Shown: positions 2,800 to 25,897 of the stretch, one piece after another
How the letters are laid out: every line of letters begins with the position of its first letter
Position numbering within the stretch: position 1 is the stretch's first letter
Source: Minisyncoccota bacterium
GTDB taxonomy: Bacteria > Patescibacteriota > Minisyncoccia > Phycocordibacterales > GWA1-40-21
Assembly (NCBI GenBank): GCA_041659365.1
Contig: JBAZYH010000001.1
Span: forward strand, 37,590 to 101,589
Length of the DNA stretch: 64,000 bases
Direction of reading: 5' to 3'
Translations under genes and position numbers: made by a program
Notes under the pieces: generated by a model
The model's database searches: none
What the model was told of the DNA's origin: nothing
The model's input: the letters and a program-made list of their open reading frames with translations, nothing else

Positions 2800-2891
2800 T
2801 TCTTCGACCCCGACTCCTTCACCTTCGTTCAGTCCGTCTTTTCACTTGGGTCCCTAACCCAAGCTCAACTCCACCACCTGAGCTAGGGCCC
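2800..2891 (-). other. tRNA-like fragment / degenerate tRNA (5' half resembles tRNA-Ala)
   Basis: Reverse complement begins GGGCCCTAGCTCAGGTGGTGGAG (acceptor plus D-arm like), but no canonical anticodon or T-arm could be folded. Confidence 0.3.
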
Positions 2892-3073
2892 AATATTTAA
2901 CTAACAAACGAAACAAAATTACTTTTGTAACGCTTGATATATTAGCATATTAATATATTTTTTCCAAGTGATTTAGCAAAATCACAATTATATAATACTT
3001 ATAAAATTTTACTAATACAATTAGTAAGAATTTTAACGAACGACGATAATTCACAGACGTCTATAATCTACGA

Positions 3074-4063
3074 CTAATCACTATCATTCTCTATTTTCTT
3101 ACCATTTAAAGCTAGTGTAATAATATGATCTAGAAAATGAGGAAAAGCACAACCAATAGCTTCTAATGATTTGGGTAATAATGATTCTTTTGTTAGACCA
3201 GGAAGTGAATTAACTTCGAGTATATATATCCCCCTCTTGTGACTTACAATGAAATCAGACCTCGAATAATGTCTTAAACCAAGTACCCTATGGGCTTCTA
3301 CCGCCATATTTTGTATGGTCTCTTTTTCTTTTGAAGAAAAATTACCCGGACATACTTCCTCTGAACACCCAGAATATTTTTCATCATAACCCCAAAAGCC
3401 TATTTCTCTGGGCTTAAGAATCTCGATAGGTAAAAGTGGATAAATACTTTTTTCTCTAAAATTTTCTATGACACCACATGTTGCTTCCCTTCCTTGTATA
3501 AATTCCTCAACAATTAAAAAATCTGAATGTCTAAACGCCTCCTCCATGGCAGGAATTATATCTTTAACGGATTTAACAATAGTAACACCGAGAGAAGAAC
3601 CGCTACCCCCTGGCTTCACAATCGCTGGCATAGGGAATGTTTTAAAAATCTCTTGTGCTTTTTCTTCCGTATTTTCACCTTTTTTAACAACTATATAAAC
3701 AGGAGTTTTTAGTCCAGCTTTTATAAAAAAATCTTTTGCAAGTACTTTATTCATACCAATAGCAGAAGCCAGAGCTTTGGAACCAGTGTATTTTACACCA
3801 AAATGATTCATCAACTGTTGAACTTTTCCGTCTTCACCATATTCACCATGAAGAGCATTAAAAACAACATCAACATCTCGAAAAACTTTTGCAGGAGCTA
3901 CTGAAACACCATCAACATACCACCCACCATTTTTAGAAATAAAAACATCTGTGGGAATATATTTATCAGGTAAATTTTCTAAAACACTCTTCCCTGTTTT
4001 AAAAGAAACTTCTGATTCCCTGCTAGGTCCGCCACGTAAAACAGCTACTTTTATTCTTTTCAT
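3074..4063 (-). CDS. ddl: D-alanine--D-alanine ligase
   Basis: Full-length ATP-grasp Ddl pattern: KVAVLRGGPSRESEVSFKTG, ALHGEYGEDGKVQQLMNHFGVKYTGS, KPGGSGSSLGVT, EVNSLPGLT. Confidence 0.9.
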   Translation of the reverse strand: MKRIKVAVLRGGPSRESEVSFKTGKSVLENLPDKYIPTDVFISKNGGWYVDGVSVAPAKVFRDVDVVFNALHGEYGEDGKVQQLMNHFGVKYTGSKALASAIGMNKVLAKDFFIKAGLKTPVYIVVKKGENTEEKAQEIFKTFPMPAIVKPGGSGSSLGVTIVKSVKDIIPAMEEAFRHSDFLIVEEFIQGREATCGVIENFREKSIYPLLPIEILKPREIGFWGYDEKYSGCSEEVCPGNFSSKEKETIQNMAVEAHRVLGLRHYSRSDFIVSHKRGIYILEVNSLPGLTKESLLPKSLEAIGCAFPHFLDHIITLALNGKKIENDSD

Positions 4064-4142
4064 AATAATATTATATCACTTATAAAAACAAAATTAAAAT
4101 AAAATACCGCCCTCATTAAAGAGAAGCGGCATTTTCAAGCTT

Positions 4143-4538
4143 TTATTCGCTTATGGATGTAAATTCAACTTCTTTACCGATAACACTGACTTTATACAAC
4201 TTTCCAATCTCAGGAATAGCCATATACTTACGATCAGTCAGCCAAGTAAAAACATTGCAAAGTATAGGTTCCCTCTCTTTTCCCTCCATTACATCAAGAA
4301 GTATGTAAATTCCATGTATATTGCGACAATAACACAGTATTTTTACAACACGACCGCCTATTTCACCAGCGAAATCTCTTGTTGGTTTACCAAGACTTTT
4401 CTTGCTACCAGAAGCAATTCCCTTATTAAAAGCTACCCCTTTCGCGTCATTAAGGACAAGAAGCATCCCTAAAAATAAGAAAACAGCAAAGATAAAAACT
4501 GTCATAAAGACCCGAAACCAAAACATACTCATGTACAT
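4143..4538 (-). CDS. hypothetical single-pass membrane protein
   Basis: N-terminal TM helix followed by a 100-aa soluble domain. No family recognised. Confidence 0.4.
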   Translation of the reverse strand: MYMSMFWFRVFMTVFIFAVFLFLGMLLVLNDAKGVAFNKGIASGSKKSLGKPTRDFAGEIGGRVVKILCYCRNIHGIYILLDVMEGKEREPILCNVFTWLTDRKYMAIPEIGKLYKVSVIGKEVEFTSISE

Positions 4539-4600
4539 CCTGAACCTCCTTTATTCAAACGTTTAAAAAACAACTCCATCGAGAATACTATATCTTTATT

Positions 4601-5932
4601 CTATTTTGTAAAGATAGACCTTTTTTCTCTATGATATTTAATAGCAAACCTATGAGCTTCACTGTTTGCAAGTAAAATATCGTTTGAATACTTTTCTGTT
4701 ATATTTTTAGATCCCAATATTGCTTTCGGTTTATGATATTCATCTTTTAAGACAGAAACAATCTCAATTTTAGATACTTCGCTCACCAAGGTCTCTCCTT
4801 TTTGAGGATTCAAGGAAAGACCTTTCTTCATTTCATTCAAAACTTTTCTAGCAACATTTATCTGAGCTTTTCCACCATCTACCACAATAATCTGAGGGAA
4901 AGCCCATTCTAAATGTTTAAACCTTCTCTCTAAAATTTCTCTCAAAGCATCAGTATCACTCCCCTTACTATTTCTTATAATAAATTTTCTATATTCATTT
5001 TTATTTATTTCTCCGTTTTCTATTACAGTCATTACACCAACATTATTTGTACCTGAAAGATGAGCTACATCATAAGCTTCAATACGAAACAGATGCGGAC
5101 TAGACGCGGATTTTATGCTGACTTGACGCGGAAAATTAAAAACATTTTCTTCATTATATTCAATATTCGACATTCTGTATTCATCTTTTATAAGAGCTAC
5201 ATCTTGAATATGATTTAGTGCGAAAATAGTTTTTTTAATATTATTTGCTTTTTCGAATTGTTGATTCTTAGCAAAAATGTTCATCTCTTTTTCAAGATTT
5301 TTTATTATTTGTTTTTTTCTACCTTCAAAAAATAATTTTATATTTTTAATGGTTTTTTGATATTCTTTCTTTGTAACCAAACCAACACAAACACCAGGAC
5401 AAAGTCCTATTTGATAATTAAAACATGGTTTATCCTGACCAATCTTACATTTATCTCTAAAAGGGAAAATTTTCCTTACTATTTTTATAGCTTCTTTAAG
5501 CTGACTTCCGTTTGTGTATGGTCCAAATTTTTCTTTAATCGAGTATTCTAATTTTTCAATATTTTCTAAATTTCTTCCACGTTCAACTAAAACTCTAGGA
5601 TAGTCCTCTTTTGTAATAACAACATAATTAAAACTCTTATTATCTTTTTCTTTTGTATTATATTTTGGTTGATGTTTTTTTATAAGCTCAGCTTCTAAAA
5701 TAATTGCCTCGAGAACTGAGTCTGTTTCTATATAATCAATTTTATCTGCAAGAAAAACCATATCCACAATAAGAGGACTTCTCATGGCTATCAAATCACT
5801 AGAAAAATAACTTTTTACTCTATCTTTAAGAGATGTAGCTTTTCCAATATACAAAATCCCTTTTCCTTTTTTGAAAAGATAGACACCAGGATTTTCTGGT
5901 AAAATATTATTTTTTATATATTGACTATTCAT
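4601..5932 (-). CDS. uvrC: excinuclease ABC subunit C (UvrC), short form lacking C-terminal HhH domain
   Basis: GIY-YIG N-terminus (PGVYLFKKGKGILYIGKATSLKDRVKSYF), UVR-like motif (FEKANNIKKTIFAL), and RNaseH-like endonuclease domain (RIEAYDVAHLSGT...IIVVDGGKAQI). 443 aa against about 600 typical. Confidence 0.85.
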   Translation of the reverse strand: MNSQYIKNNILPENPGVYLFKKGKGILYIGKATSLKDRVKSYFSSDLIAMRSPLIVDMVFLADKIDYIETDSVLEAIILEAELIKKHQPKYNTKEKDNKSFNYVVITKEDYPRVLVERGRNLENIEKLEYSIKEKFGPYTNGSQLKEAIKIVRKIFPFRDKCKIGQDKPCFNYQIGLCPGVCVGLVTKKEYQKTIKNIKLFFEGRKKQIIKNLEKEMNIFAKNQQFEKANNIKKTIFALNHIQDVALIKDEYRMSNIEYNEENVFNFPRQVSIKSASSPHLFRIEAYDVAHLSGTNNVGVMTVIENGEINKNEYRKFIIRNSKGSDTDALREILERRFKHLEWAFPQIIVVDGGKAQINVARKVLNEMKKGLSLNPQKGETLVSEVSKIEIVSVLKDEYHKPKAILGSKNITEKYSNDILLANSEAHRFAIKYHREKRSIFTK

Positions 5933-5995
5933 ATTTAATATGATTACATATTATCAGAAGTTATTAAACAACTCAAACAAAAAAAGGAGCTGATT

Positions 5996-6262
5996 ATGTT
6001 TTGGTCTTATGTTATGCAATCCCGCATTCTTACTGGAATACTTATCATTATTCCTGTAATTCTTTTTTTACTCTCCACGTTTGACAAAAGAGACGAAAAA
6101 AAAGAGATACTGGAACTTGAGCTTGTCGATACAAGTGATTCTGAAACAGATATGGTGGGAATAAGAAAAAAGGGAGTATTGTTTAGACGTAAACTTTACG
6201 CCGTTGCGATAGTTTTTATTATACTTTGTCTACTCAAAGAGTGCTTCTTTTGGCACTTCTGA
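5996..6262 (+). CDS. small two-TM membrane protein
   Basis: Strong RBS aaggag 8 nt upstream; two hydrophobic helices; followed by terminator accccgcgtacacaacgcggggt plus T-run at about 6268-6300. Confidence 0.5.
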   Translation: MFWSYVMQSRILTGILIIIPVILFLLSTFDKRDEKKEILELELVDTSDSETDMVGIRKKGVLFRRKLYAVAIVFIILCLLKECFFWHF

Positions 6263-6376
6263 ACCCTCTACCCCGCGTACACAACGCGGGGTAAGTTTTT
6301 ATTTCTTTATCATTTTTTCATAGCCCAGTAACACAACTCTGTTGCAGGATGAAGTCAGTCACAAGACAGGTTTACC

Positions 6377-7975
6377 TTACTTTTGTTTCTTATTTAATAC
6401 TCTCTTTAAGTATTTTCCTGTGAAGCTCTTCCCATTCATCGCAATATCTTCAGGAGTACCTTTTGCTATAATTTGTCCACCTTTATCTCCACCTTCTGGA
6501 CCAATATCTATAACATAATCAGCAGATTTTATGAGATCCATATTGTGTTCAATAACCATTACTGTATTTCCATTGTCTACAAGCTTTTGTAAAATCTCTA
6601 TAAGTTTTTTTACATCTTCATAATGAAGACCGATAGTTGGTTCGTCCAAGAAATAAATCGTCTTATACATTCCTGGTCTGTAAAGTTCTGAGGAAATTTT
6701 TACTCTTTGTGCCTCTCCACCCGAAAGGGTTGTTGCAGACTGTCCAAGCTTCAAATATCCAAGACCAACGTCATTTAGACATTTTATTCTATCGTAAACA
6801 TTGGGTATATCTAAAAAGAAATCCTGCGCCTCTTCTACAGTCATATCAAGTACTTGATGAACATTTTTTCCTTTATATTTTACTTCCAAAGTTTCTTTCA
6901 TAAATCTTTTTCCATTACAAATATCACAAGGTACATAAACCGTAGGAAGAAAATGCATTTCAACTTCTATGTTTCCATTACCTTCACAAGTTTCGCAACG
7001 CCCACCTTTTACGTTAAAAGAAAATCTATTTGCCTTCCATCCCCTTTCACGAGCCATCACAGTTGAAGCAAAAAGCTCACGAATAAATGTCCAACATCCA
7101 GTATATGTCGCCGGGTTTGAACGAGGAGTTCTACCTATTGGAGACTGATCTATCATTACAGTTCTGCTTATATATTCTGAACCAGTAAATGACGCGCAGT
7201 TATGAGTCTCCGTTGATCTCATTTTTCTCTCAAGTCTTGCCTGAAGATTTTTATATAATATTTCATATATAAAAGAAGATTTTCCAGAACCAGAAACTCC
7301 AGTGACACAAACAAGTTTACCTAGAGGAACATCAATATCCATATTTTTAATATTAAATATCTTTCCCCCTCTTATTTTTAATTTTCCTTTATCTTGATCC
7401 CTTCTTTTTTCTGGAATCTCTATTCTATCTTCTCCACGCAAATAACTAAGAGTAAGTGATCCACTTTCATTTTTCTTTGCTGTTAAAAGTTCGTCGAGAT
7501 ATCCAGTGACGACAACTTCTCCACCATGGACCCCAGCACCAGGACCAATATCTACGATAAAATCGGAAGCATACATGGTATCTTCGTCATGTTCCACAAC
7601 AATAATAGTATTACCTAAATCTCTAAGATCTGTAAGCGTTTTTATGAGTTTGTCATTATCTCTCTGGTGTAGTCCTATGGTTGGTTCATCGAGCACATAA
7701 AGCGCACCTACGAGCCCAGAGCCGAGCTGGGAGGCAAGACGGATCCTTTGAGCCTCTCCTCCAGAAAGTGTGTTTGCTCTTCTATTTAATGATAAATATT
7801 CTATACCAACATTGGTCATAAACAAAAGTCTAGAATCTATCTCTTTCAAAATAACATTCGATATTTCTTTTTCTGTTTCAGTAAGTTTTACTTCATTAAT
7901 AAAAGTTTTTGCATCTGTAATAGATTTTGCAACGTAGTCTACAATATTTAGACCATTTATAAGTATATGAAGTGC
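6377..7975 (-). CDS. uvrA: excinuclease ABC subunit A (UvrA), C-terminal segment, in frame with the upstream segment
   Basis: The same frame continues straight after the TAA: ALHILINGLNIVDYVAKSITDAKTFINEVKLTETEKEISNVILKEIDSRLLFMTNVGIEYLSL, then LSGGEAQRIRLASQLGSGLVG, the second ABC domain and LSGGEAQRVKI. The first Met of the track ORF is at 7849. Confidence 0.85.
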   Translation of the reverse strand, partial: ALHILINGLNIVDYVAKSITDAKTFINEVKLTETEKEISNVILKEIDSRLLFMTNVGIEYLSLNRRANTLSGGEAQRIRLASQLGSGLVGALYVLDEPTIGLHQRDNDKLIKTLTDLRDLGNTIIVVEHDEDTMYASDFIVDIGPGAGVHGGEVVVTGYLDELLTAKKNESGSLTLSYLRGEDRIEIPEKRRDQDKGKLKIRGGKIFNIKNMDIDVPLGKLVCVTGVSGSGKSSFIYEILYKNLQARLERKMRSTETHNCASFTGSEYISRTVMIDQSPIGRTPRSNPATYTGCWTFIRELFASTVMARERGWKANRFSFNVKGGRCETCEGNGNIEVEMHFLPTVYVPCDICNGKRFMKETLEVKYKGKNVHQVLDMTVEEAQDFFLDIPNVYDRIKCLNDVGLGYLKLGQSATTLSGGEAQRVKISSELYRPGMYKTIYFLDEPTIGLHYEDVKKLIEILQKLVDNGNTVMVIEHNMDLIKSADYVIDIGPEGGDKGGQIIAKGTPEDIAMNGKSFTGKYLKRVLNKKQK

Positions 7976-8986
7976 TTATTCTCTAAGTCTCGCACCCTTA
8001 CACTTTTCACAATCTTCATCAGAGAAAAAATCTTTTGTTCCAAGACCATTACACTCACTACATGCTCCATAGGGTGAGTTAAAAGAAAAAAGTCTAGGCT
8101 CTATCTCAGGATAAGAATATCCATCATAAGGGCACATGAATTTTACAGAAATCATTTTCTCTTCTTCAGGAGTTTCTATCTTAAGTAAACCTTTTGACTC
8201 ATCTATAGCTTTTTCTACAGCATCAGATAAACGCTCCTTAATAGCATCTTTTTTATCCTTAAACTCACTTATATAAAATTCATCGACAAGAACGTCTATG
8301 TCGTGTTTTTTATTTTTTGAAAGAATTATTTGATCCCTAAGCTTTTTAAGTTGACCATCTATTTTTACTGATTCATATCCTTTTTCAAGTAAATCATAAA
8401 GAAGCTGATAATATTCTCCTTTTCTTCCCACAACTACAGGTGAAAAAATTTTTATTTTATCACTTACAACTTCTACTCCAAGAATTTCCCTAGAATTCTT
8501 TGGTGCTTTAATTGCATAAACTGTATGAAAAATTGTTTCTAAGATTTCTTCCTTTGAAAGCTTCTTTATTTCTCTTCCACAAACCAAACAATGTGGTCTA
8601 CCAATTCTTGCAAAAAGAATTCTAAGATAATCATAAATTTCTGTAATAGTAGCTACTGTGGAACGAGGGTTATTTGAACGAGATTTTTGATCTATAGAAA
8701 TAGCTGGTGAAAGACCAATGATTTCATCCACATCCGGCTTCTGCATCTGATGTAAGAATTGTCTTGCATATGAAGAAAGTGACTCTATATATCTACGCTG
8801 GCCTTCCGCAAAAATAGTATCAAAAGCAAAAGATGACTTCCCTGAACCGGAAAGGCCTGTAACTGCTATCATCTTATTTCGAGGCATCTCAACTGTGATA
8901 TTCTTAAGATTATGAGTTCTAGCACCCCTTACAATAATCTTGTCAGAATTATGATTTACATCTGTTTTTGTTTTTTTTGTATTCAT
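7976..8986 (-). CDS. uvrA: excinuclease ABC subunit A (UvrA), N-terminal segment ending at an in-frame TAA
   Basis: UvrA N-terminus with Walker A ([25 protein letters not shown]) and zinc-finger region ([32 protein letters not shown]). Stop TAA at 7976-7978. Confidence 0.85.
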
Positions 8987-9082
8987 ATAACATTAAATGC
9001 CCTCTAGGTTTGCCCTAGGGGTTTATACTGAATTTATATAGTAACAATTAGTATGAAGATTGTAAATAGGTATACTTATTTT

Positions 9083-9111
9083 GACAATCAACTACATAAA
9101 CGATAACATAA
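9083..9111 (+). promoter_or_regulatory. sigma70-like promoter candidate for the NUDIX gene (TTGACA, 17 nt, TAACAT)
   Basis: ttgacaatcaactacataaacgataacat lies 8 nt upstream of the ATG at 9119. A near-identical tttgacaatcaa core also occurs at 13201. Confidence 0.35.
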
Positions 9112-9118
9112 ATAAAAA

Positions 9119-9550
9119 ATGATCTATCTTAAAAAACCTAAAAAATTCAATAGCATATTTGAAGTTGTAAGTTGTTTCTTTGAAAAAGATGGAAAAATTT
9201 TACTATTACACCGCCAGGACTACAAGCCACAAGGAAATACTTGGGGTGTTCCCGCAGGAAAAGTTGAAGTTAATGAAATTCCCATAGACGCTATTACTCG
9301 AGAACTCAAAGAAGAAATTAGCTACAAAATCAATACAGATACTTTTAAACTCACTAAAACAATTTATGTAAAATATCCTAAATACGATTTTATATATCAC
9401 ATATATTATTTACCTATAACAAAAAATTTTGAAATAAAAATTGACCCAAAAGCCCACAAAGATTTTAAATGGATAACACCTAAAGAAGCTTTAAATATGA
9501 ATTTGATTCAAGATTTAGATGCTTGTATTAAAATACAATATAATATTTAA
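9119..9550 (+). CDS. NUDIX hydrolase
   Basis: Nudix box GVPAGKVEVNEIPIDAITRELKEEISY. Confidence 0.85.
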   Translation: MIYLKKPKKFNSIFEVVSCFFEKDGKILLLHRQDYKPQGNTWGVPAGKVEVNEIPIDAITRELKEEISYKINTDTFKLTKTIYVKYPKYDFIYHIYYLPITKNFEIKIDPKAHKDFKWITPKEALNMNLIQDLDACIKIQYNI

Positions 9551-9570
9551 AAATAAAAACTTTAAAAAAT

Positions 9571-9665
9571 AATTATAATTTACACATATCAGCTATAGCT
9601 GATATGTGTAAATTATAATTATTTTAATACAAGAAGACGACTCGCAAAGCGAGTCGTCTTCTTGT
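9571..9665. terminator. bidirectional terminator region between convergent genes: 50-bp perfect palindrome plus a second perfect hairpin
   Basis: aattataatttacacatatcagctatagctgatatgtgtaaattataatt (9571-9620) and acaagaagacgactcgcaaagcgagtcgtcttcttgt (9629-9665), flanked by A/T runs. Confidence 0.55.
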
Positions 9666-10999: not shown

Positions 11000-13063
11000 T
11001 TATTTCTTCCTTTTAATAGTTTTGACCTTTGGAGTCATTACCTTTATTTTTTCTTTCAACAATAAAATTTCGTCTCGAAGAATAGAAGCGGACTCGAAAT
11101 CTAATATTTTTACAGCGGCATTCATCTGTATTTCTTTCTGTCGAATAAGCTTTTCTGGATTTTTAACAGAGGATACCTCATCTATTCTCAAAAGCTCCTG
11201 CACGGCTTTATCATGATCACTTCTCAAATGTTCAGTAATATCTTTTATAGCCTTAATTATAGTCCTTGGAGTTATGCCATTTTTTTTATTATAGGCTATC
11301 TGTATATCTCTTCTTCTATTTGTTTCTTCTAAAGCTCTTTCTATAGAACCTGTGATTCTATCTGCATAAAGAACAACCCGTCCAGCTACGTTTCTGGCTG
11401 CACGTCCTATTGTCTGTATAAGTGAGGTATCCGAACGCAAAAATCCTTCTTTATCAGCATCAAGTATTCCTATAAACTCTACTTCTGGAAGATCAAGACC
11501 CTCTCTGAGCAAGTTTACTCCTACAAGACAGTCAAACTTCCCTCTTCTAAAACTTGTAAGAATTTCTATTCTGTCTATAGTTTTTATTTCACTATGTAAA
11601 TATTCTGCTTTAACACCTTTTTCTTTTAAATATTCACTAAGATCTTCTGCCATCTTTTTAGTAAGTGTTGTAGCAATAACTCTTCCGCCTCCTTTTATAA
11701 CTTTTAATGATTCATCTATAAAATCAAAAACTTGAGATTTATTTTTATTCTTCACTTCAGTAATCGGCCTTATTTCTACAACAGGATCAATAAGTCCAGT
11801 AGGCCTAATAACCTGCTCAACTATTTGTTCAGAATTTTCTCTCTCGTAATCTCCTGGAGTTGCTGAAGTAAAAATAACTTGATTTATTCTCTCCTCAAAT
11901 TCATCAAACTTTAGTGGTCTATTGTCCTTTGCAGATGGAAGCCTAAAACCATAATCTATAAGAGTTTTCTTTCTTGAAGCATCTCCCGCATACATACCAC
12001 GAATCTGAGAGACAGCTACGTGTGATTCATCTATAACAGTAAGAAAATCTGGAGTACCATCTTCTTTTTTAGGAAAATATTCAAGCAGACTGTCTGGAGC
12101 TTCTCCTGGATTTTTACCAGAAAAATGTCTGGAATAATTTTCTATACCATTACAATAACCAACCTCTTTTATTAAAGCGAGATCATAAGTAGTTCTCCTT
12201 CGAAGTCTTTCTGCTTCAAGATTTTTACCTTCCTTTTTCAAATCTTCGAGTTGTTTTTCCAACTCCGCTTTTATACTTTTGAAGGCTCTTTCTTGTTGTT
12301 CCTTATCTGTAATAAAATGTTTTGCAGGAAAGATAAAAATCGATTGTATATTATCTTCAACAATATTTCTTGAAACAGAATCTATTCTGGTAATAGCTGA
12401 GACTTCGTCATTCTCAATATCTATCCTTATAATAATCTTTTCGTTTACTGGCATTACTTCAATAGAATTACTTACTGCTCTAAATGTTCCAGATTTGATA
12501 TCAGAATTTGTTCTTTCAAAGTAAACACTTATAAGCTTCCTTACTAAATCTTGTCTTGAATAACTATCTCCTATTTTTAGTTTAAGATTAACTTTTTCAT
12601 ATTCCTTTGGACTTCCTAAACCATATATACAAGAAACTGATGCGACAATTATCACATCTTTCCTTGTAAGAAGTGCCTGAGTAGAAGCATGACGAAGTCG
12701 ATCAATTTCCTCATTTATCATTGCCTCTTTTTCTATATAAGTATCTGTAACAGGCATATAAGCCTCTGGCTGATAATAGTCATAATAAGAGACAAAATAA
12801 TGTACAGCATTATCAGGGAAGAATTCTTTATATTCTTGAGCAAGCTGAGCCGCAAGGGTTTTATTGTGAGCTATTACAAGAGTTGGTTTCTGTATTTGCT
12901 GGATAACATTTGCAACTGTAAAAGTTTTTCCAGAGCCAGTAACACCAAAAAGGGTTTGTTTTTTAAACCCCTTTTTAATCCCTTCAACTAGCTGTTCAAT
13001 TGCATTTGGCTGGTCACCAGCGGGAGCATAATCAGCTCGAATTTTAAACTTATTTTGTGACAT
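11000..13063 (-). CDS. uvrB: excinuclease ABC subunit B (UvrB)
   Basis: ADYAPAGDQPNAIEQLVEGI, Walker A GVTGSGKTFTVANVI, helicase motifs, C-terminal UVR domain. The track ORF starts at 13084, but the likely start is the Met at 13063 (MSQNKFKIRADY), because the upstream codons fall inside the repeat element. Confidence 0.9.
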   Translation of the reverse strand: MSQNKFKIRADYAPAGDQPNAIEQLVEGIKKGFKKQTLFGVTGSGKTFTVANVIQQIQKPTLVIAHNKTLAAQLAQEYKEFFPDNAVHYFVSYYDYYQPEAYMPVTDTYIEKEAMINEEIDRLRHASTQALLTRKDVIIVASVSCIYGLGSPKEYEKVNLKLKIGDSYSRQDLVRKLISVYFERTNSDIKSGTFRAVSNSIEVMPVNEKIIIRIDIENDEVSAITRIDSVSRNIVEDNIQSIFIFPAKHFITDKEQQERAFKSIKAELEKQLEDLKKEGKNLEAERLRRRTTYDLALIKEVGYCNGIENYSRHFSGKNPGEAPDSLLEYFPKKEDGTPDFLTVIDESHVAVSQIRGMYAGDASRKKTLIDYGFRLPSAKDNRPLKFDEFEERINQVIFTSATPGDYERENSEQIVEQVIRPTGLIDPVVEIRPITEVKNKNKSQVFDFIDESLKVIKGGGRVIATTLTKKMAEDLSEYLKEKGVKAEYLHSEIKTIDRIEILTSFRRGKFDCLVGVNLLREGLDLPEVEFIGILDADKEGFLRSDTSLIQTIGRAARNVAGRVVLYADRITGSIERALEETNRRRDIQIAYNKKNGITPRTIIKAIKDITEHLRSDHDKAVQELLRIDEVSSVKNPEKLIRQKEIQMNAAVKILDFESASILRDEILLLKEKIKVMTPKVKTIKRKK

Positions 13064-13078: not shown

Positions 13079-13154
13079 TGTCATTCCCGTGAAGACGGTA
13101 ATCCATGAATATTATATTTCTGTCATTGCGAGGTAGTCCGTCGCAATCCAGGTT
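13079..13154. repeat. two short palindromic repeat elements (TGTCATT-hairpin-AATCC family)
   Basis: tgtcattcccgtgaagacggtaatccatg (13079-13107) and tgtcattgcgaggtagtccgtcgcaatccaggtt (13121-13154). Confidence 0.6.
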
Positions 13155-13289
13155 ATATTAACTGATTCTATATTACCCTTGAATGAATAATAATAACATT
13201 TGACAATCAAACAATGATTATGCTACATTTTAAAAGGAAAGACAAGTGTTTTTTTTAAAAAAAAACACAAAGAAAAAGGATAGTACGTT

Positions 13290-13592: not shown

Positions 13593-13654
13593 TCTTTTTT
13601 ACAGCATTTTGACAAAGGTTTTCAAGGACGGAACAATCATCCCTACTTGAAAAT

Positions 13655-13690
13655 CAAAAACCGCGTGCACGACACACGCGGTTTTCTTAT
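13655..13690 (+). terminator. intrinsic terminator (copy 1 of an identical pair)
   Basis: ccgcgtg-cacgaca-cacgcgg stem-loop plus T-run. An identical 36-bp sequence sits at 14204-14239. Confidence 0.6.
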
Positions 13691-13795
13691 TTTTTAAAAA
13701 TTGAGTTCAAACTAAAATTGACTTAATCTGACTTATTATGTAGTCTTTTAACTAGGAAATCAAGTTCTCAAACAAAACGAGTAAAAGGAGCCAGT

Positions 13796-14182
13796 ATGAA
13801 AAGGTTTTTAGTCCGATCATCGAAAGAGAACCAGTTTTGGACTTTTTTGATCAAAAAAAGCCGTAACGGAAAAATGGGGTTATGGTTTGTGATGGTGTAT
13901 GTTAAGAGTCTCAACTTTATTACCCTTTCCCCCGTCTGGAGAAAGATTGAAAATAATGGGTTACCAAAAAATATTGGTACCCATGGCCGTTTCATTCTTG
14001 GTGGAGACATCAAGCTACTTGGTGGTGACGATGCTGGATCAAATGAAAAAGAATACATCTCACAAACAACACAAAGTGGCTCTGTTAAACACACACTTCC
14101 TTGTGACGGTTTTGGCAGAGAAAAAATATTTCGCACTCTTCTCTTACTTTCAAAAGAAAGCTCTGGAGAACAGGTTGTCTAA
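13796..14182 (+). CDS. hypothetical protein; moderately GC-rich
   Basis: Consensus RBS aaaaggagcc, 5 nt, then ATG; followed by the second copy of the identical terminator (14204-14239). Overlapping alternative-frame ORFs (13899-14462 +, 13768-14136 -) are judged spurious. Confidence 0.4.
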   Translation: MKRFLVRSSKENQFWTFLIKKSRNGKMGLWFVMVYVKSLNFITLSPVWRKIENNGLPKNIGTHGRFILGGDIKLLGGDDAGSNEKEYISQTTQSGSVKHTLPCDGFGREKIFRTLLLLSKESSGEQVV

Positions 14183-14257
14183 GGCCCAAAACCTTAGGTT
14201 AATCAAAAACCGCGTGCACGACACACGCGGTTTTCTTCTGTCACTTAAGCGACAAAA

Positions 14258-14725
14258 TCAGTCGAATCGTTTACAATTTCTACCTACAAACCAAGGTTTT
14301 TTCTCTAAATATTCAATAATAAACTCCCCTTTTCTTTTGTGGACATTATACCTTGCCTTAAAAGTTAACCATCCACAAATATCAACATTTCCCTTTTTAA
14401 TTACGTCAACCGGTAATTTAAAAAGAGAACAAAGAGTCAGTCTTGATTCTTTATCAAAATAACCAGATAAAAAATAATCACTATAATTATATTCTATATT
14501 TTCAATACCTGTAATTACAACAGATATAGCAATTGCAGTTGTACTTTTTTCCCATCCTTTTATTGGTTGTAAGAGAATTTTAAAAATTACAGGAAAACCA
14601 AAAGGCGAATTTCCCCCACTACTACCTAATGATGGTAAAGTAATTGAAAGCGAAGTTAAAACACTATGAAGTGAAGGTCCATCATCGATACTTGTAGTTA
14701 CCAGTTCTCTTTTTTCGGTAGTCAT
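14258..14725 (-). CDS. hypothetical protein
   Basis: Good RBS (aaaaaggagagtcgtATG); 155 aa; no family recognised. Confidence 0.45.
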   Translation of the reverse strand: MTTEKRELVTTSIDDGPSLHSVLTSLSITLPSLGSSGGNSPFGFPVIFKILLQPIKGWEKSTTAIAISVVITGIENIEYNYSDYFLSGYFDKESRLTLCSLFKLPVDVIKKGNVDICGWLTFKARYNVHKRKGEFIIEYLEKKPWFVGRNCKRFD

Positions 14726-14885
14726 ACGACTCTCCTTTTTGAATGAACAAGCGTATTAGTTGATGAATACACGATACATCCTTATTTCCAGTTTTACCTA
14801 GAAACGACCCAACCATACAGTCAGGAATTAATTCATTTTTATATTATATATAATATGTAGTAATGTCAATTTTTAGGATTATAAA

Positions 14886-14921
14886 TTTTACACATATACG
14901 CCATGGCGTATATGTGTAAAA
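14886..14921. repeat. perfect palindrome TTTTACACATATACGCCATGGCGTATATGTGTAAAA (copy 1 of 3)
   Basis: Perfect inverted repeat centred on CCATGG, flanked by T- and A-runs. It lies downstream of the tgt stop, so it is probably a bidirectional terminator. Confidence 0.6.
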
Positions 14922-14940
14922 TTAATTTATTAAAATACTT

Positions 14941-15066
14941 AACCTGGATTGCGACGTCAGAATACTTCCTCGCAATGACAGAAGGGGAATTTTGCGAAGC
15001 AAAATTCCCCTCTCTCCTATTTATTTTCTTTTTGTCATTGCGAGTTACTACGTCGCAATCCAGGTT
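14941..15066. repeat. two short palindromic repeat elements in opposite orientation, plus a central hairpin
   Basis: aacctggattgcgacgtcagaatacttcctcgcaatgaca (14941-14980); ggggaattttgcgaagcaaaattcccc hairpin (14984-15010); tgtcattgcgagttactacgtcgcaatccaggtt (15043-15066). Confidence 0.55.
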
Positions 15067-15076
15067 AATTTTTATT

Positions 15077-16378
15077 TTATTTAAGATATTTACTTAAAAA
15101 TTCTTTTCTAAATTTATCAAAATTATTATCTAGTATACTCTGACGGATTTTTTTAACTAGATTAACAATAAAATAGATATTATGTATTGAAGCTAGTGTT
15201 CCACCAAGCATTTCTTTACCATGGAAAAGATGACACAAATAAGCTCTAGAATAATTCTTACATGTATAACACGCGCAATCATCTTCAACGGGTTTTATAT
15301 CTATTCTAAACTCGTTATTCATTATATGAATCTTCCCTGTCTTAGTGTAAATAGTTCCGTTTCTTCCAAGCCTTGTTGGTAATACACAATCAAAAAGATC
15401 TATACCATTTTCGATTCCCATAAATAAATCTTCTGGTTCACCAATACCCAAAAGGTGTCTTGGTTTTTCTTCTGGAAGTATCTCATTTACCCATTTTACA
15501 GCAGTAGACATATCTTCTTTAGCGAAAGAACCACCTATTCCAAAACCATCAAACTTTTCTCCATCTATCTCCATTTCTGAAATTACTTTTGCAGATTTCT
15601 TTCTTAAATTTTCATCTCTACCACCTTGGATAATTCCGAATAATGCTGGGCCAAAAAAATCCTGGATTCCCGCCTCCGCGAGAATGACAGATTCGGTTTT
15701 TGTTTCTTTCAACTTTTCACTTTGAACTTTTAACTTGAGATGTTCTTCCAGACAGCGCTTTGCCCAAGAATGAGTCCTCTCAAGTGCCTCCTCTTGATAC
15801 TTCAAATCTTCGGATGGTGAAGTACACTCATCAAAAGCAAATATCATATCTGCACCTAAGTTATGTTGTATCTGTATAGATCTCTCAGGAGTAATATAGT
15901 GAACAGAACCATCTATATGAGATGTAAAAGAAACTCCATCCTGTCCTATCTTTGCCAGCCTTGGAGCATTTGAATCATCAAATCTTTCAGGAATCAAAAG
16001 AGATGGATTAGTTATTTGTATAACTTTTGATATTTCTTTTCCATAAGCAGCACCAAGAGAAAAAACTTGAAAACCACCAGAATCAGTCATACTCGGTCCG
16101 TGCCAGTTCATCATTTTATTTAAACCACCCATTTTCTTCACAGATTCATCTCCAGGCTGAAGATATAAGTGATATGTATTTGCAAGGACTACTTGAGCTC
16201 CAGTATCTCTCACCTGCTCAGGATTGACCGATTTTACTGTCCCCTTAGTCCCAACCACCACAAAAGCAGGGGTTTCTATTATCCCGTGAGCTGTTTCTAT
16301 AGTTCCTGCTCTTCCAAGCTTTCCTTCAAGCTTTTTTTCTATTTTAAAATTAATAGCTTTCACTTGGTTAATATACAT
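15077..16378 (-). CDS. tgt: queuine tRNA-ribosyltransferase
   Basis: GRAGTIETAHGIIETPAFVVVGTKG, VLANTYHLYLQPG, zinc site CACYTCKNYSRAYLCHL. The track ORF runs to 16477, but that extension overlaps a repeat element, so the Met at 16376-16378 (MYINQVKAINF) is the likely start. Confidence 0.85.
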   Translation of the reverse strand: MYINQVKAINFKIEKKLEGKLGRAGTIETAHGIIETPAFVVVGTKGTVKSVNPEQVRDTGAQVVLANTYHLYLQPGDESVKKMGGLNKMMNWHGPSMTDSGGFQVFSLGAAYGKEISKVIQITNPSLLIPERFDDSNAPRLAKIGQDGVSFTSHIDGSVHYITPERSIQIQHNLGADMIFAFDECTSPSEDLKYQEEALERTHSWAKRCLEEHLKLKVQSEKLKETKTESVILAEAGIQDFFGPALFGIIQGGRDENLRKKSAKVISEMEIDGEKFDGFGIGGSFAKEDMSTAVKWVNEILPEEKPRHLLGIGEPEDLFMGIENGIDLFDCVLPTRLGRNGTIYTKTGKIHIMNNEFRIDIKPVEDDCACYTCKNYSRAYLCHLFHGKEMLGGTLASIHNIYFIVNLVKKIRQSILDNNFDKFRKEFLSKYLK

Positions 16379-20312: not shown

Positions 20313-21389
20313 TTAGTTTATTTTAATACACTCATTAAAAGATTGAACTTCTTTATTATATAAAGTTGTCGAGTCTTTTATATTTGAGGCAAGATTATTA
20401 AAAATATGAGCTAAGTTATTATACTCAGAGACCTTCTCATTATATTTTACAACATCAGAAGTACTAGCAACTTTTAATTCACCCTCAACTTTTTTAAGGT
20501 TTATCTTTACCACACTTAAAGCATCATTATTTTTTTCTATCGTTGCTTTGTTAGAATTATTTGGCTCAACACAAAAAGACATCGGCTTACTAAAAATCTG
20601 TGCTGATATCCATACTTTTTTACCTTTATATTCACCCTCCCTTGAATATACACCGATTTCTGTATAATTTTTATTTAAAATATTTGCTCGATGTCCTTCA
20701 CTGTCCATCCAAGCCTGAACGATTTCTCTAGAACTACCAAAATTACCCAATGCAATATTTTCACCAATTATTATATATTTATAATTATTTTTTTCTGCCA
20801 GCTTAGAAGCAGAGTCTCCCGTAGGAGAAACATGCTCAAAATAAGTTTTTGCAAACATATCGTCAACACGCCCTTTTGCTATCTTCGTTAGACTATCGCT
20901 TGATTTAAGCTGCGTAAGATTTGTAGCATTTTTATTTCTCTCAATATTTGTCCAATATATTATCTGACCATCATTCAAAATCAAACTATCATTCGGACTT
21001 TCACTATCTACGAGTGGTTGGGGTAAAAGCTTATTTTTTGTTACAATATTCTTTTCTGTAATAATAGGAGTTGTGGTGCTTTCAATACCGATTTTTTCTT
21101 CTTTAACTAACGTAAGATATTCTTTCTCTTTCCCAACACAAACTTTATTACCAAAAAGTACCCTGAATTCACCTTCTTTCCATTGACCATTAGAGACAGC
21201 AAAAAAATATTGAATACAAAATTCTCTTCTTATTTGCTCGGTAATATTACTGTCTATAAAAATAATAATATTATCTATCTTTTGAAAGATTGTGTCTAAG
21301 GCAGAAGCTTTAGTAATAGAGATAGAAAAAATACAAAAAAATATCACCACCAAGAATAGTATTTTTGTGCCAATTTTATACAAATTCAT
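20313..21389 (-). CDS. secreted CAP/SCP (PR-1-like, YkwD-type) domain protein
   Basis: Signal peptide; CAP core GRVDDMFAKTYFEHVSPTGDSASKLAEKNNYKYIIIGENIALGNFGSSREIVQAWMDSEGHRANILNKNYTEIGV. Confidence 0.6.
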   Translation of the reverse strand: MNLYKIGTKILFLVVIFFCIFSISITKASALDTIFQKIDNIIIFIDSNITEQIRREFCIQYFFAVSNGQWKEGEFRVLFGNKVCVGKEKEYLTLVKEEKIGIESTTTPIITEKNIVTKNKLLPQPLVDSESPNDSLILNDGQIIYWTNIERNKNATNLTQLKSSDSLTKIAKGRVDDMFAKTYFEHVSPTGDSASKLAEKNNYKYIIIGENIALGNFGSSREIVQAWMDSEGHRANILNKNYTEIGVYSREGEYKGKKVWISAQIFSKPMSFCVEPNNSNKATIEKNNDALSVVKINLKKVEGELKVASTSDVVKYNEKVSEYNNLAHIFNNLASNIKDSTTLYNKEVQSFNECIKIN

Positions 21390-21450
21390 ATATCAATATA
21401 TTATCACAAAAATACTTTTTTGTATTTTATTTATAGTGTATAATATCTAT

Positions 21451-21858
21451 ATGAATTTTTTGAAAACTATTTTTGGTTATCTTAAATGGCACTATGGAAA
21501 AGCTCTCTTTGCAACATTCTCTTTATGGAAAAATCTTCTTTTTTTCCTGTTACGTTTTTTTTCACTTAAAAGTTTACTCACAAATTTCTTTGCACCATGG
21601 AAAAGACTCACAGAAAGCTATCCTAGAAATTTTGGAATAGACTCAGATACCCTGAAAAAGTATCTAAATACTTTTACTATAAATACAATAATGAGATTGT
21701 TCGGAATGATTTTCAGAACTTTTGCGATTACTATTGGACTAATCTGTTGTCTTACTTTTATTCTCCTACTTCCTTTTACACTAGCTTTTTGGTTAGCTTT
21801 ACCTGTTTTAATAATAGGATCTTTTTTATTTGGGTTAGTCTTAATCTTCTCCTATTAA
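21451..21858 (+). CDS. small polytopic membrane protein (about 135 aa), immediately upstream of the ClpB-like gene
   Basis: Start set at the Met at 21451 (MNFLKTIFGY); 3-4 TM helices. The ClpB-like ORF starts 7 nt after the stop, so probably co-transcribed. Confidence 0.45.
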   Translation: MNFLKTIFGYLKWHYGKALFATFSLWKNLLFFLLRFFSLKSLLTNFFAPWKRLTESYPRNFGIDSDTLKKYLNTFTINTIMRLFGMIFRTFAITIGLICCLTFILLLPFTLAFWLALPVLIIGSFLFGLVLIFSY

Positions 21859-21864
21859 ATTTTT

Positions 21865-24336
21865 ATGAAAATCAACGATTATTTAAAACAAAGTTCCTTA
21901 CATAATGTATTAACCGTAGAATCTATTGTTTCAGAAAACTTCAGAAATAAAATATCTAAATTTTCTGAAAATATGATTTATATTATTATTTTTGTAATAA
22001 TAATATATTTTCTAATAAAAGATACGGAAAAGTTTATTATATACAAACAAGCTATAGACTTCATAATACCTAAAATTATTGGACTACTCTTTATAAATAT
22101 TGGTTTACTATTTTTTTCAAAATTAATAGACTTTTATTTCTCTTCTACATACTACTTTGAAAAAATAACAAAAAATAATTATAGTAAAGATGAAATGTAT
22201 ACTTTTTCTGTTGGAAGGGTTCTTTATGCAGGTAGAAAAACAGATATTTTACATGGCTTCATGGATTCAAAAATAGGAAAGGAAGTTTTTCTAAGACTTG
22301 GTATTGGAGACGAAGATAAAGAAAATTTCTACAATACACAAAAAATAGAACCCGAAGATGTAATGCCTCAATCTAAAGGAGACATAATGAAACTGGAAGA
22401 TATTATAAATTATCTTTGTGATTACAAGAAAAATTTCATTAGTTTCTTAAACGAAAAAGGTATAAATAAAAATGACCTACTAGGAACAATAAACTGGGTT
22501 ATATATGAAATAGAGTCAGAAGAATACGAAAAACAGTGGTGGAGACCAGAAACTCTATTAAAAACAAAAGGTATGTTTGATGATTGGTCTTTTGGCAAAA
22601 CATATGTCCTCGATAAATACAGTAGAAATATATTAGAAGACGAAGAGGTCAACTCTGAGGCGATGATAATATCTAACCGTGAATCAGAAGTAGTACAAAT
22701 AGAAAATGCCCTTTCAAAATCTTCTGGTTCAAATGTAATGCTTGTAGGAAATCCTGGTCAAGAAAAAATTCAGGTAATATGGAGTCTTTGTAGAAACCTC
22801 AAAAAAAGAAAAGTTACTTCAAAAATACTTGGTAAAAAAGCTATACTCCTCTCAGTAAATTCTCTTATTTCTGTGTGCAAAGATAAAAACTCTTTTGAAG
22901 AACAACTAATAAAAATATTAAATGAGGTAACACACTCTGGAAATATTTTTCTTGTTATAGATAATTTTATTCAACTTTCAAATACAGCAAAAAAGCTTGG
23001 CAGCGATTTCACAAATATTTTTAATCCATTCTTAGAAAATTCTATTGTTCAGATAATCGCCCTGGTAAATACAAATGATTTTCACCAGTATATTGAAAAA
23101 GATAAAACATTACTTAATAACTTTGAAGTTATTTATGTTAAACCATTAGCTACAGAAGAAATAATAAAAATAATTTATGCTTCTGCACTAAACACAGAAA
23201 AACATTATGGTATATATTTTACATATCAAGCAATCAAAGAACTCGCCGAAGGTTCCGCGTACTACTTCTCTGATGGGGTTTCGACAGATAAAGCAATATC
23301 TCTTCTAAACGAAATATCTCCTTGGGCTAAAAGAAATGATAAAATTATTATTGGAAAAGATGAAGTTCTAGATTTTATAGAAAAAAAGACAAATATTCCT
23401 ACAAGTGGAAAAATATCGATAGATGAAAAAGATAAACTCTTAAAACTTGAGGAACTAATTCAAAAAAGAGTTATTGGGCAAGATGACGCTATTGTAGCTA
23501 TTAGTAATGCTCTAAGAAGAGCTAGAACAGGCGTAAGGAACCAAAATAAGCCTATAGGGTCATTCTTATTCTTTGGACCAACTGGTGTAGGAAAAACCGA
23601 AACAGCAAAAGCTTTAGCATACGTGTTTTTTGGTAATGAAGAAAACATGATGAGACTGGATATGTCTGAATATCAAACAGATGACGCAATAGAGAAACTC
23701 ACCGGTTCATTTACTACAGGTAAAACTGGAATCTTCTCAGATATGTTAAGAGAAAAACAATACGGTGTTATTCTTTTAGACGAATTTGAAAAAGCAAATA
23801 AAGATGTATTGAACTTATTTCTTCAAATATTTGATGAGGGATTTTTCTCCGATATGTCAGGACAAAAGATAAATACCAGAAATATTATTTTTATAGCCAC
23901 ATCAAACGCTGGAGCAGATACAATATTTGACATAGTAAATAAAGGTGAAAATCCAAAAAATAAAAAAGAGGAAATAATTGCAGATATAGTAAGTAGAGGT
24001 TTATTTAAACCAGAGCTTATAAACCGCTTTGATGGGACAATAATTTTTAAACCACTAGAGCACGATGATTTACTTAAAATTGCAGATATAATGCTAAAAA
24101 AAGTTTCCGAAAGAATACTTGAAAAAGGTCTCTCCATTGAATATGGTGATGACGTAATAGAATATATAATTACAAATGGAACAAACAAAGTTTTTGGTGC
24201 AAGACCTATGAATAGATTTATACAAGACTCCATAGAAGCACAAACAGCAAAACTTATAATTTCTGGAGAAGCAGTTTCTGGACGAACAATAAAATTTATT
24301 ATTGAGAATAATATACTTTTAGCAAAGATTGTATAG
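21865..24336 (+). CDS. membrane-anchored ClpA/ClpB-like AAA+ ATPase with a degenerate first nucleotide-binding domain
   Basis: The N-terminal 100 aa hold 2-3 TM helices instead of a Clp N-domain. D1 Walker A is degenerate (VMLVGNPGQEKIQVIW). D2 is canonical ClpB-like: VIGQDDAIVAISNALRRARTGVRNQNKPIGSFLFFGPTGVGKTETAKALA...ILLDEFEKANKDVLNLFLQIFDEG...FIATSNAG...ELINRFD. Confidence 0.75.
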   Translation: MKINDYLKQSSLHNVLTVESIVSENFRNKISKFSENMIYIIIFVIIIYFLIKDTEKFIIYKQAIDFIIPKIIGLLFINIGLLFFSKLIDFYFSSTYYFEKITKNNYSKDEMYTFSVGRVLYAGRKTDILHGFMDSKIGKEVFLRLGIGDEDKENFYNTQKIEPEDVMPQSKGDIMKLEDIINYLCDYKKNFISFLNEKGINKNDLLGTINWVIYEIESEEYEKQWWRPETLLKTKGMFDDWSFGKTYVLDKYSRNILEDEEVNSEAMIISNRESEVVQIENALSKSSGSNVMLVGNPGQEKIQVIWSLCRNLKKRKVTSKILGKKAILLSVNSLISVCKDKNSFEEQLIKILNEVTHSGNIFLVIDNFIQLSNTAKKLGSDFTNIFNPFLENSIVQIIALVNTNDFHQYIEKDKTLLNNFEVIYVKPLATEEIIKIIYASALNTEKHYGIYFTYQAIKELAEGSAYYFSDGVSTDKAISLLNEISPWAKRNDKIIIGKDEVLDFIEKKTNIPTSGKISIDEKDKLLKLEELIQKRVIGQDDAIVAISNALRRARTGVRNQNKPIGSFLFFGPTGVGKTETAKALAYVFFGNEENMMRLDMSEYQTDDAIEKLTGSFTTGKTGIFSDMLREKQYGVILLDEFEKANKDVLNLFLQIFDEGFFSDMSGQKINTRNIIFIATSNAGADTIFDIVNKGENPKNKKEEIIADIVSRGLFKPELINRFDGTIIFKPLEHDDLLKIADIMLKKVSERILEKGLSIEYGDDVIEYIITNGTNKVFGARPMNRFIQDSIEAQTAKLIISGEAVSGRTIKFIIENNILLAKIV

Positions 24337-24441: not shown

Positions 24442-24615
24442 CTAGATTGCTTCGCTTTGCTCGCAAAGACACACAAAAAAAATAACACAAAGAGGTTTTT
24501 GCAAAGCAAAAACCTCTTTGTGTCTTTGCGAGCAAAGCGAAGCAATCCAGGTTTGTATTTATTTTTTTGTTGTCATTCCCATGCAGACAGCCTGCCCGCC
24601 TTAGGAGGGGGAATC
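24442..24615. repeat. composite palindromic element (inverted 30-bp arms around a 37-bp hairpin) plus one more short palindromic element
   Basis: ctagattgcttcgctttgctcgcaaagaca / cacaaagaggtttttgcaaagcaaaaacctctttgtg / tgtctttgcgagcaaagcgaagcaatccaggtt; then tgtcattcccatgcagacagcctgcccgccttaggagggggaatc (24571-24615). Sits between convergent genes. Confidence 0.6.
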
Positions 24616-24705
24616 TATAATTCTAATATAAAAAATAGCCTCATAAAATTTAAAATAAATTTTATGAGGCTATTTTTCGTAATCGTCTGTGTTCATTTTA
24701 TTAAA

Positions 24706-25014
24706 TTAGACGGTCTCAAGTTTTGCTTTGAGAGAATTCTCAACTTTAGCTCTTGCTTTGGTTTTAGATTTCTTCTCCTTACAGTCTAGATAGTAGATGC
24801 TTATCATTGTACCTATTGCGCAACCTAATGCATAAAATAGTACAATCCAAACATTATCTAGGTTATTAATTATTTTATCGAGTACATAATACCAGATTAA
24901 AATATTAATAAATGTGATGGAACCACTCGACAAAACCATGTTTTTAGAAACAAAATGTGTCCAAGTAGTTGCAATTATCATTTCAACGATACCAACAAAG
25001 AATATCATCAACAT
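24706..25014 (-). CDS. hypothetical 3-TM membrane protein
   Basis: 102 aa, hydrophobic, Lys-rich C-terminal tail. Confidence 0.4.
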   Translation of the reverse strand: MLMIFFVGIVEMIIATTWTHFVSKNMVLSSGSITFINILIWYYVLDKIINNLDNVWIVLFYALGCAIGTMISIYYLDCKEKKSKTKARAKVENSLKAKLETV

Positions 25015-25118
25015 AACTGTTTTGGATATTAAATTTTTAAAGTTCGACCAATAAAAATAACAAAGTCGTACTTTGTTATTTACCTTTGTATTATAACATA
25101 TTTTATGTATTTTGCAAG

Positions 25119-25825
25119 CTAAATAAATCCCTTTAAATAAGCTAGTCTTTCCCTTTCTGGAAACTTTTCTATAGCATATCTAAGCATAGTTCTTGGGATC
25201 TTTCTATAATATTTATTTAAAAAAAACTCTTCATCTTTTAAAGATCTCTTTCCTACTTCTCGAAGCATCCAACCGACAGCTTTATGTATAAGGTCATGTT
25301 TATCCCCCATCAATATCTCAGCAATTTTAAAAACATCTTTATACTCTCCATTTTTAATAAAAGTATAAGTAGAAATAATAGAAATTCTTTTTTCCCAAAG
25401 GTTTTTTGATACAGCAAATTTATACAACAAATATTTCGGCTTATCTATCAAGTATTCACCGACTATTCTAGGAGCTGAAAGATCTACCAAATCCCAATTG
25501 TTAGCCTGCTTTGCATTTTTAATATAAAATTCAAAGACTTTTGCTTTTTCTAGACCATTTGCCTTTTCAAATTTATCTACAAGTATAAATAAAGCGCAAA
25601 TCCTTTCTTCGTGTATTTTTGAATACAAAATTTTCTTAACTTCTGATAATTTTAGATCTCTATATTTTTAGCAACCTTTCTCGTATTAGGAACAATAATT
25701 CCTAGAAATATATCTCCTTCTCCATACTCCCCCTTTTTTGTTTTAAAAAACCTCTGCAAAATATTCGCCTTTTCAAAATTTGCAAGACTTATTAACTCAC
25801 TTTTTATATCTTCCACTTTAGCCAT
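25119..25825 (-). pseudogene. DNA alkylation repair glycosylase AlkD/AlkC-like (HEAT-repeat), disrupted by a frameshift at a T5/A5 homopolymer
   Basis: N-terminal fragment 25652-25825 ([57 protein letters not shown]) and C-terminal 169-aa ORF 25119-25628 (..SKIHEERICALFIL..WDLVDLSAPRIVG..IHKAVGWMLREVGKR..) are in different frames. Adding one base to the run at 25665-25669 fuses them into one protein. Confidence 0.6.
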
Positions 25826-25860
25826 ATCCTTATTATACTCATTTTAATGAAATAAAAAAT

Positions 25861-25897
25861 GAGGAGACGCCTTTTTTAATTCTCAAGGCCTCACCTC
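25861..25897. repeat. conserved imperfect hairpin element (copy b) with compensatory change
   Basis: GAGGAGACGCCttttttaattctcaaGGCCTCACCTC; A>G on the left arm is matched by T>C on the right arm, compared with the other copies. Confidence 0.6.

Follow-up and report, generated by a model that had tools for sequence, protein, structure and literature searches.

A single in-frame TAA interrupts uvrA in a Minisyncoccota genome, probably as a very recent nonsense mutation

Results and Discussion

We analyzed a 64,000-nucleotide stretch of DNA from a Minisyncoccota bacterium (assembly GCA_041659365.1, contig JBAZYH010000001.1, positions 37,590 to 101,589 of the forward strand), hereafter the window and numbered from its first letter, in which the DNA-repair gene uvrA is interrupted by one in-frame TAA at codon 337. 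We propose, with a probability of roughly 0.6, that this TAA arose very recently through a genuine nonsense mutation of GAA (Glu337), at least in the variant followed by the assembler, whether that variant is dominant or a minority. A single G:C>T:A transversion would suffice for the change. We infer that the base is truly present in the DNA of the cells and is not a consensus error. Whichever of the two applies, very recent pseudogenization or consensus error, the change is an ordinary nonsense lesion that involves no novel mechanism.

The uvrA gene lies on the minus strand, which had not been stated in the first-pass annotation of the window. Translation from 8986 to 6377 gives 870 codons, that is, 869 sense positions including the one internal stop, and a terminal stop (TAA at 6377–6379). 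Past the internal TAA the peptide continues in the same frame to the first ATP-binding cassette (ABC) signature, LSGGEAQRIRLA. The first-pass annotation, which was made from the letters alone, had described a single in-frame TAA with the frame preserved, a nonsense codon with no frameshift, and a downstream sequence leading into LSGGEAQRIRLA. This description holds: the translation contains one internal stop with homology on both sides and the same flanking peptide, and there are no indels or rearrangements relative to the genes of relatives. A six-frame scan of the window for stops with at least 80 open codons on each side returned four cases, namely the uvrA stop, a boundary between two genes at 21856, and two sites antisense to rpoC. 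The internal stop in uvrA is not a product of chance.

Table 1. Coordinates of the features discussed in the text, numbered along the window
Feature	Position	Strand	Observation
uvrA, whole reading frame	6377..8986	minus	translation; NCBIfam UvrA equivalog matches on both halves; 97% amino-acid and about 90% nucleotide identity to intact orthologues
Premature stop TAA, uvrA codon 337	7976..7978	minus	reads TTA on the plus strand
uvrA N-terminal fragment, 336 aa	7979..8986	minus	Walker A of the first ATPase module, zinc-module cysteines, UvrB-binding domain
uvrA in-frame remainder, 532 codons	6377..7975	minus	first ABC signature LSGGEAQRIRLA, Walker B, entire second ATPase module
uvrC, intact	4601..5932	minus	GIY-YIG, UVR and UvrC RNase H domains; colinear with relatives
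uvrB, intact, 687 aa (NCBI annotation)	11000..13063	minus	start MSQNKFKIRADY; all UvrB domains
alkD-like DNA-alkylation-repair gene, frameshifted	25119..25825	minus	PF08713 split over two frames
Logan contigs of run SRR18595301 matching the window	2812-5349, 5321-6521, 8627-9595, 24531-25890		

Domain Content and Expected Effect of the Stop

Both sides of the stop are recognized as UvrA. The N-terminal part (336 aa) matches positions 2–294 of NCBIfam NF001503 (396 bits, E = 3e-118), and the C-terminal part (532 aa) matches positions 421–942 of the same model (828 bits, E = 8e-249) as well as TIGR00630, where its 800 bits exceed the cut-off of 729.8. The translation contains two ABC modules, each with a Walker A, an LSGGE signature and a Walker B. 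Among the motifs read are VLDEPTIGLH in the first module and GVSGSGKSS, LSGGEAQRVKIS and FLDEPTIGLH in the second. The UvrB-binding domain, PF17760, occupies residues 175–273 (E = 1e-22). The gene therefore has the sequence match, the two ABC modules and the UvrB-binding domain of a UvrA equivalog, but its frame is not uninterrupted, owing to the TAA at codon 337.

Two ABC ATPase modules, zinc-module cysteines and a UvrB-binding domain are shared with the canonical class I UvrA proteins (PDB 9gxk, 2r6f, 3pih and 3zqj), and an intact orthologue of the clade (P0001) aligns with 9gxk at 1026 bits. In contrast to these proteins, UvrA of this gene and of the whole Patescibacteria clade is devoid of the insertion domain, and in the present case the open reading frame (ORF) is also broken.

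The UvrB-binding and insertion domains of UvrA emerge from the first nucleotide-binding domain (PMC11985968). Therefore, the Walker A of site I precedes residue 337, while the signature and Walker B of that site follow it. If the stop is obeyed, the only expected product would be a 336-residue fragment that carries the first Walker A and the UvrB-binding domain and is devoid of the first LSGGE signature, the first Walker B and the whole second ATPase module. The 532-codon remainder would be expected to stay untranslated. A fragment of this composition would form neither composite ATP sites nor a DNA-binding dimer and, judging from its motif content, should be inactive. Full-length UvrA would presumably be absent, and the strain should then be without UvrA-dependent damage recognition, despite having intact uvrB and uvrC.

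Ancestral Codon and Comparison with Relatives

The identity of the lost codon is evident from a comparison with orthologues, which the first-pass annotation had proposed and in which the stop was found in no relative. We compared the best 120 UvrA homologues, whose names refer to Candidatus Paceibacterota, Patescibacteria or Minisyncoccia, and 126 Patescibacteria-type loci covering the site (tblastn). The residue at the stop position is Glu in 119 of the 120 homologues, the remaining one having failed the search pattern. It is likewise Glu at 125 of the 126 loci, the window being the sole exception. In the solved UvrA structure 9gxk, the residue opposite codon 337 is a conserved Glu. The members of the closest 90% clusters do not have the stop either: those of the closest cluster, at most 97.9% identical, all have Glu, and so does P0373, a different relative that is the second entry in the cluster of the 336-aa fragment.

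The closest DNA relatives (L001–L003, L004, L005 and L167) have colinear and intact uvrA genes with 87–90% nucleotide and 95–98% amino-acid identity to that of the window. The gene order ddl, uvrC, uvrA, NUDIX, response regulator, kinase, uvrB is kept in the nearest relatives. Codon 337 is GAA or GAG in the five nearest, with identical flanks (L001, for example): they read CTT AGA GAA/GAG GAA/GAG GCA CTT, and the window reads CTT AGA GAA TAA GCA CTT. The lesion is thus a single transversion, read as G>T on the coding strand and as C>A at plus-strand position 7978.

Two observations concern uvrA in other genomes of this kind. In a related metagenome-assembled genome (MAG), about 150 nt of unrelated sequence, with two in-frame stops and an N-run at the end, interrupt uvrA (L009:3120-3275, CAZEMP010000003.1). 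This scaffolding artefact shows that assembly damage does occur in this gene family. UvrA fragments of 300–400 aa (P0122, P0126, P0131, P0140, P0142 and P0160) occur on contigs of 54–230 kb in other Patescibacteria assemblies, so it may not be unusual for such MAGs to have interrupted or truncated uvrA calls.

Age of the Lesion

The ratio of nonsynonymous to synonymous divergence (dN/dS), calculated by the Nei–Gojobori method between the window and each relative, is 0.014–0.049 upstream of the stop and 0.019–0.035 downstream. Neither range is higher than that found among pairs of intact genes (0.027–0.063). We also counted window-specific changes at codons where four relatives agree unanimously. 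The uvrA of the window has 44 unique synonymous changes and one unique replacement, a conservative I>L, compared with 4–18 unique replacements in each intact relative. Neutral drift of the downstream half during a fraction f of the terminal branch should have added about 145 × f replacements. Since at most one is seen, we estimate that f would be less than about 3% of that branch. With no relaxed constraint and no secondary lesion, the stop is either extremely young or not real.

The gene resembles the "internal stop" nonsense pseudogenes of the NCBI Prokaryotic Genome Annotation Pipeline (PGAP), in which one substitution turns a conserved sense codon into a stop while the frame and the flanking homology are kept. 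It differs from older pseudogenes, whose extra stops, indels and raised dN/dS are not found in this uvrA.

Genuine Allele or Consensus Error

The quality of the assembly argues for a genuine allele. Full-length matches to their models are found for rpoB, rpoC, rpoD, dnaG, tgt, uvrB and uvrC, which supports a clean assembly, and the 64 kb contain no other nonsense lesion; the only other lesion is a frameshift in an alkD-like gene (see below). Over the 6,068 nt of four independent Logan contigs from run SRR18595301, identity to the window is 100% (Table 1). The alkD frameshift recurs in this independent assembly, so lesions in this MAG can be real. On the 118,221-bp source contig, JGI/IMG makes two separate uvrA calls, of 336 aa ("excinuclease ABC subunit A") and 480 aa. 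In NCBI, the proteins of the MAG run from MFA5934306 to MFA5934326, and the numbering from uvrC (MFA5934308) to uvrB (MFA5934313) leaves no slot for UvrA. This gap suggests that uvrA was annotated as a pseudogene.

Several points weigh against a genuine allele. The TAA is read from an assembled consensus. The Logan contigs retrieved cover the flanks and none spans 7976–7978, so that their agreement with the window extends to the flanks and not to the TAA itself. A lesion with no accompanying decay has exactly the appearance of a consensus error, and oxidative damage during library preparation is known to produce artefactual G>T (C>A) changes. Given the strong purifying selection on uvrA in all relatives, a fixed null allele is a priori unlikely. 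Moreover, the Logan contigs end within uvrA, at 6521 and 8627, which hints at strain heterogeneity, with the TAA possibly a minority allele.

Searches for an independent copy of the site gave the following results. No match in metagenome_contigs or genome_contigs was found for an exact 38-nt pattern in which the variable base was given as N. Exact-protein look-ups yielded no independent contig across the stop with the 336-aa N-terminal fragment, residues 111–336 and 112–336, the 490- and 480-aa C-terminal fragments, seven further guessed partial or internal-start products, a guessed 720-aa Logan product with Glu337, or the full 869-aa protein with Glu337. Of these, the 336- and 480-aa pieces were matched only by the JGI calls made on the source contig itself. 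When 232 aa spanning the stop were used as a homology query, only distant fragments were returned. The 29-mers at the Logan breakpoints, sought in the relatives, were common to no locus, and a literature search for run SRR18595301 found nothing.

It is possible, with a clearly lower probability than that of a genuine mutation, that the TAA is a consensus, sequencing or variant-choice artefact and that the cells carry GAA and an intact uvrA. The A at plus-strand position 7978 would then come from low coverage, from oxidative C>A damage of the library, or from an assembler following a rare variant. The change is indeed a singleton against every relative, and neither further lesions nor a dN/dS above that of intact genes accompany it. 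In addition, the same run yields a fragmented Logan assembly, whose contigs are 1–2.5 kb long and which breaks within uvrA, as fits modest coverage or strain mixtures, and L009 shows that an outright assembly artefact can occur inside uvrA in this clade. Conversely, an error-prone consensus is difficult to reconcile with a window that is otherwise free of nonsense lesions, whose sole frameshift is independently reproduced and which shows zero differences over the 6,068 nt of independent contigs. Furthermore, few random substitutions create stops, so a stop produced by random error would not be expected within 64 kb, except at a high error rate.

A noisy long-read assembly was also considered as a source of the stop. 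It was rejected because the scorable long genes rpoB, rpoC, rpoD, dnaG and tgt fit full-length family models.

Genetic Code, Readthrough and Restart

If the TAA is real, the question arises whether it is decoded as a stop. In a crude set of 57 nonoverlapping ORFs, TAA is the terminator of 37, TAG of 12 and TGA of 8, in agreement with the first-pass annotation, according to which all three codons terminate genes in the window. TAA also ends uvrA where the relatives end, as well as uvrB, and it ends rpoB at model position 1095/1096. The G+C content of the window is 29–36%. From the 37 of 57 ORFs and the homologous ends of uvrA and rpoB, we conclude that the code is standard and that TAA is its principal terminator.

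Patescibacteria do include lineages with reassigned stops: UGA encodes Gly in Gracilibacteria and Absconditabacteria. A reassignment of TAA to an amino acid in this organism, which the first-pass annotation had considered unlikely, is excluded in view of the TAA-terminated ORFs, uvrB among them, and of the absence of an internal TAA from every other conserved gene. Taken together, all explanations that invoke decoding carry little weight.

A leaky stop is very unlikely. In this case the TAA would be real, and near-cognate decoding, or a UAA suppressor tRNA encoded elsewhere, would allow enough readthrough for a sufficient level of full-length UvrA. The preserved frame and the perfectly conserved 532 downstream codons would fit such a situation, but the youth of the mutation explains this conservation more simply. 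The TAA is found in no relative, and a readthrough signal can therefore not have evolved. The 131 nt around and after the stop fold at −15.1 kcal/mol, no better than shuffled sequences (−13.9 ± 2.9 kcal/mol, z = −0.41). No suppressor tRNA is present in the window, where the only tRNA is tRNA-Ala(UGC); the inspection covered the window, and one could be encoded elsewhere in the genome. An efficient UAA suppressor would, however, be harmful where TAA is the main terminator, and bacterial UAA is read by both release factors. It is highly improbable, too, that the TAA is real and low-level decoding of UAA supplies some full-length UvrA, which would make the allele a leaky, expression-lowering one and not a null.

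The similarity to programmed readthrough or recoding in bacteria is superficial and is limited to an in-frame stop after which coding continues in the same frame. Here, the stop is not conserved in orthologues, no stimulatory structure accompanies it, the codon is UAA and not UGA or UAG, and the window encodes no dedicated tRNA. Thus, of the origins offered by the first-pass annotation, an error and a recent mutation both stand, whereas readthrough finds no support from a conserved stop, an RNA structure or a suppressor tRNA in the window.

A split gene, with re-initiation producing the second half separately from the first and the two combining to a functional UvrA, is extremely improbable. 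Reconstitution of ABC modules from pieces is possible in principle, and JGI calls the 480-aa ORF from the ATG at 7819. However, the first in-frame starts past the stop (TTG 7849, TTG 7825 and ATG 7819) are 43–53 codons downstream, and about 50 conserved residues would be lost. None of the three is preceded by a Shine–Dalgarno motif, and no promoter-like site was found in 7600–8300. In addition, the genome seems to initiate mostly on leaderless-looking transcripts, and UvrA is a single chain in all relatives.

With regard to translation initiation in general, almost no gene start in the window has a Shine–Dalgarno motif. Many genes have TGTGATATAAT, an extended −10-like box, 7–8 nt before the ATG, as at 4063 (ddl), 10809 (kinase) and 17136 (LOG-family). 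This suggests that initiation in this genome is mostly leaderless or independent of Shine–Dalgarno pairing.

Other Repair Genes

The first-pass annotation had described uvrB and uvrC as intact, and both are: all UvrB domains are found in the one, and the GIY-YIG, UVR and UvrC RNase H domains in the other. The start of uvrB was compared with that of L001, and the exact protein is on record as MFA5934313.1.

The alkD-like gene was said to be frameshifted, and it is. What remains are a 57-aa piece (25825..25652) and a 169-aa ORF (25628..25119; MFA5934326.1 in NCBI), which match PF08713 at positions 1–41 in one frame and 62–213 in another. The lesion is a 1-nt deletion near 25,665–25,675, in an A-run within GCTAAAAATATAGAG. 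Across the junction homologues read KVAK[KN]Y.DLKLSEV, and GCTAAAAATATAGAG is one base short of encoding this peptide. The same split into 57 and 169 aa occurs, with 100% identity, on an independent Logan contig (L168, SRR18595301).

The window thus contains two damaged DNA-repair genes, as had been pointed out. This is factually right; to connect the two lesions would be to reason post hoc. Two lesions among about five repair genes, against none in about 50 others, correspond to roughly p = 0.01 in what is a post-hoc comparison. The excess is suggestive, and with no relaxed selection on uvrA we do not build on it.

The consequences depend on the status of the alleles. The significance beyond annotation is small: uvrA should be labeled as a pseudogene (internal stop) or, depending on the reads, be corrected to GAA. 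If the uvrA allele is real and dominant, the strain would have neither nucleotide-excision damage recognition nor AlkD and would illustrate, on a small scale, the ongoing loss of repair genes in a reduced-genome lineage. If the uvrA and alkD lesions are both real and dominant, this would be a natural repair-deficient (mutator-like) Paceibacteria strain.

Absence of the Insertion Domain

The UvrA of this clade (P0001–P0120, loci L001–L151) is about 860–900 aa long and has no insertion domain (PF17755), which is absent from all 120 best homologues. The missing block corresponds to residues 305–419 of 9gxk, or positions 295–420 of NF001503, and has no counterpart in the present UvrA. A linker of about 12 residues takes its place (7979–8040, minus strand). 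Conversely, Clostridia loci from the same search retain a 345-nt block at this position. Judged by these alignments, the absence of the insertion domain is a trait of the clade and is separate from the stop lesion. On structural grounds, this domain has been described as essential for DNA coordination (PMC11985968). A UvrA that does without it may be of more interest to DNA-repair specialists than the stop codon.

Other Features of the Window

The TAA at 21856–21858 was considered as a second broken gene and rejected, as it divides a small membrane-protein ORF from a ClpB-like ORF with an ATG of its own. On the plus strand at 21292–24336, a small hydrophobic ORF, this TAA and an 823-aa ClpB/ClpA-like ATPase follow one another in the same frame, with the ATG of the ATPase two codons past the TAA. 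The ClpB-like protein has a strong match to the C-terminal AAA module of ClpB only.

The 1.4 kb between uvrB and tgt (13600–15077) contain only short, overlapping, low-confidence ORFs. In L001 this interval is occupied by an acetyltransferase gene and two small hypothetical genes, with alignment limited to fragments.

Two families of short intergenic repeats are present. A perfect palindrome of 36–44 nt occurs in at least three places (14884–14923, 57853–57896 and 57413–57447), and a direct repeat of 34–38 nt occurs at 13121–13155, 15033–15067 and 43643–43680. Both look like terminators or elements similar to repetitive extragenic palindromes (REP), and pieces of them match intergenic DNA of L001.

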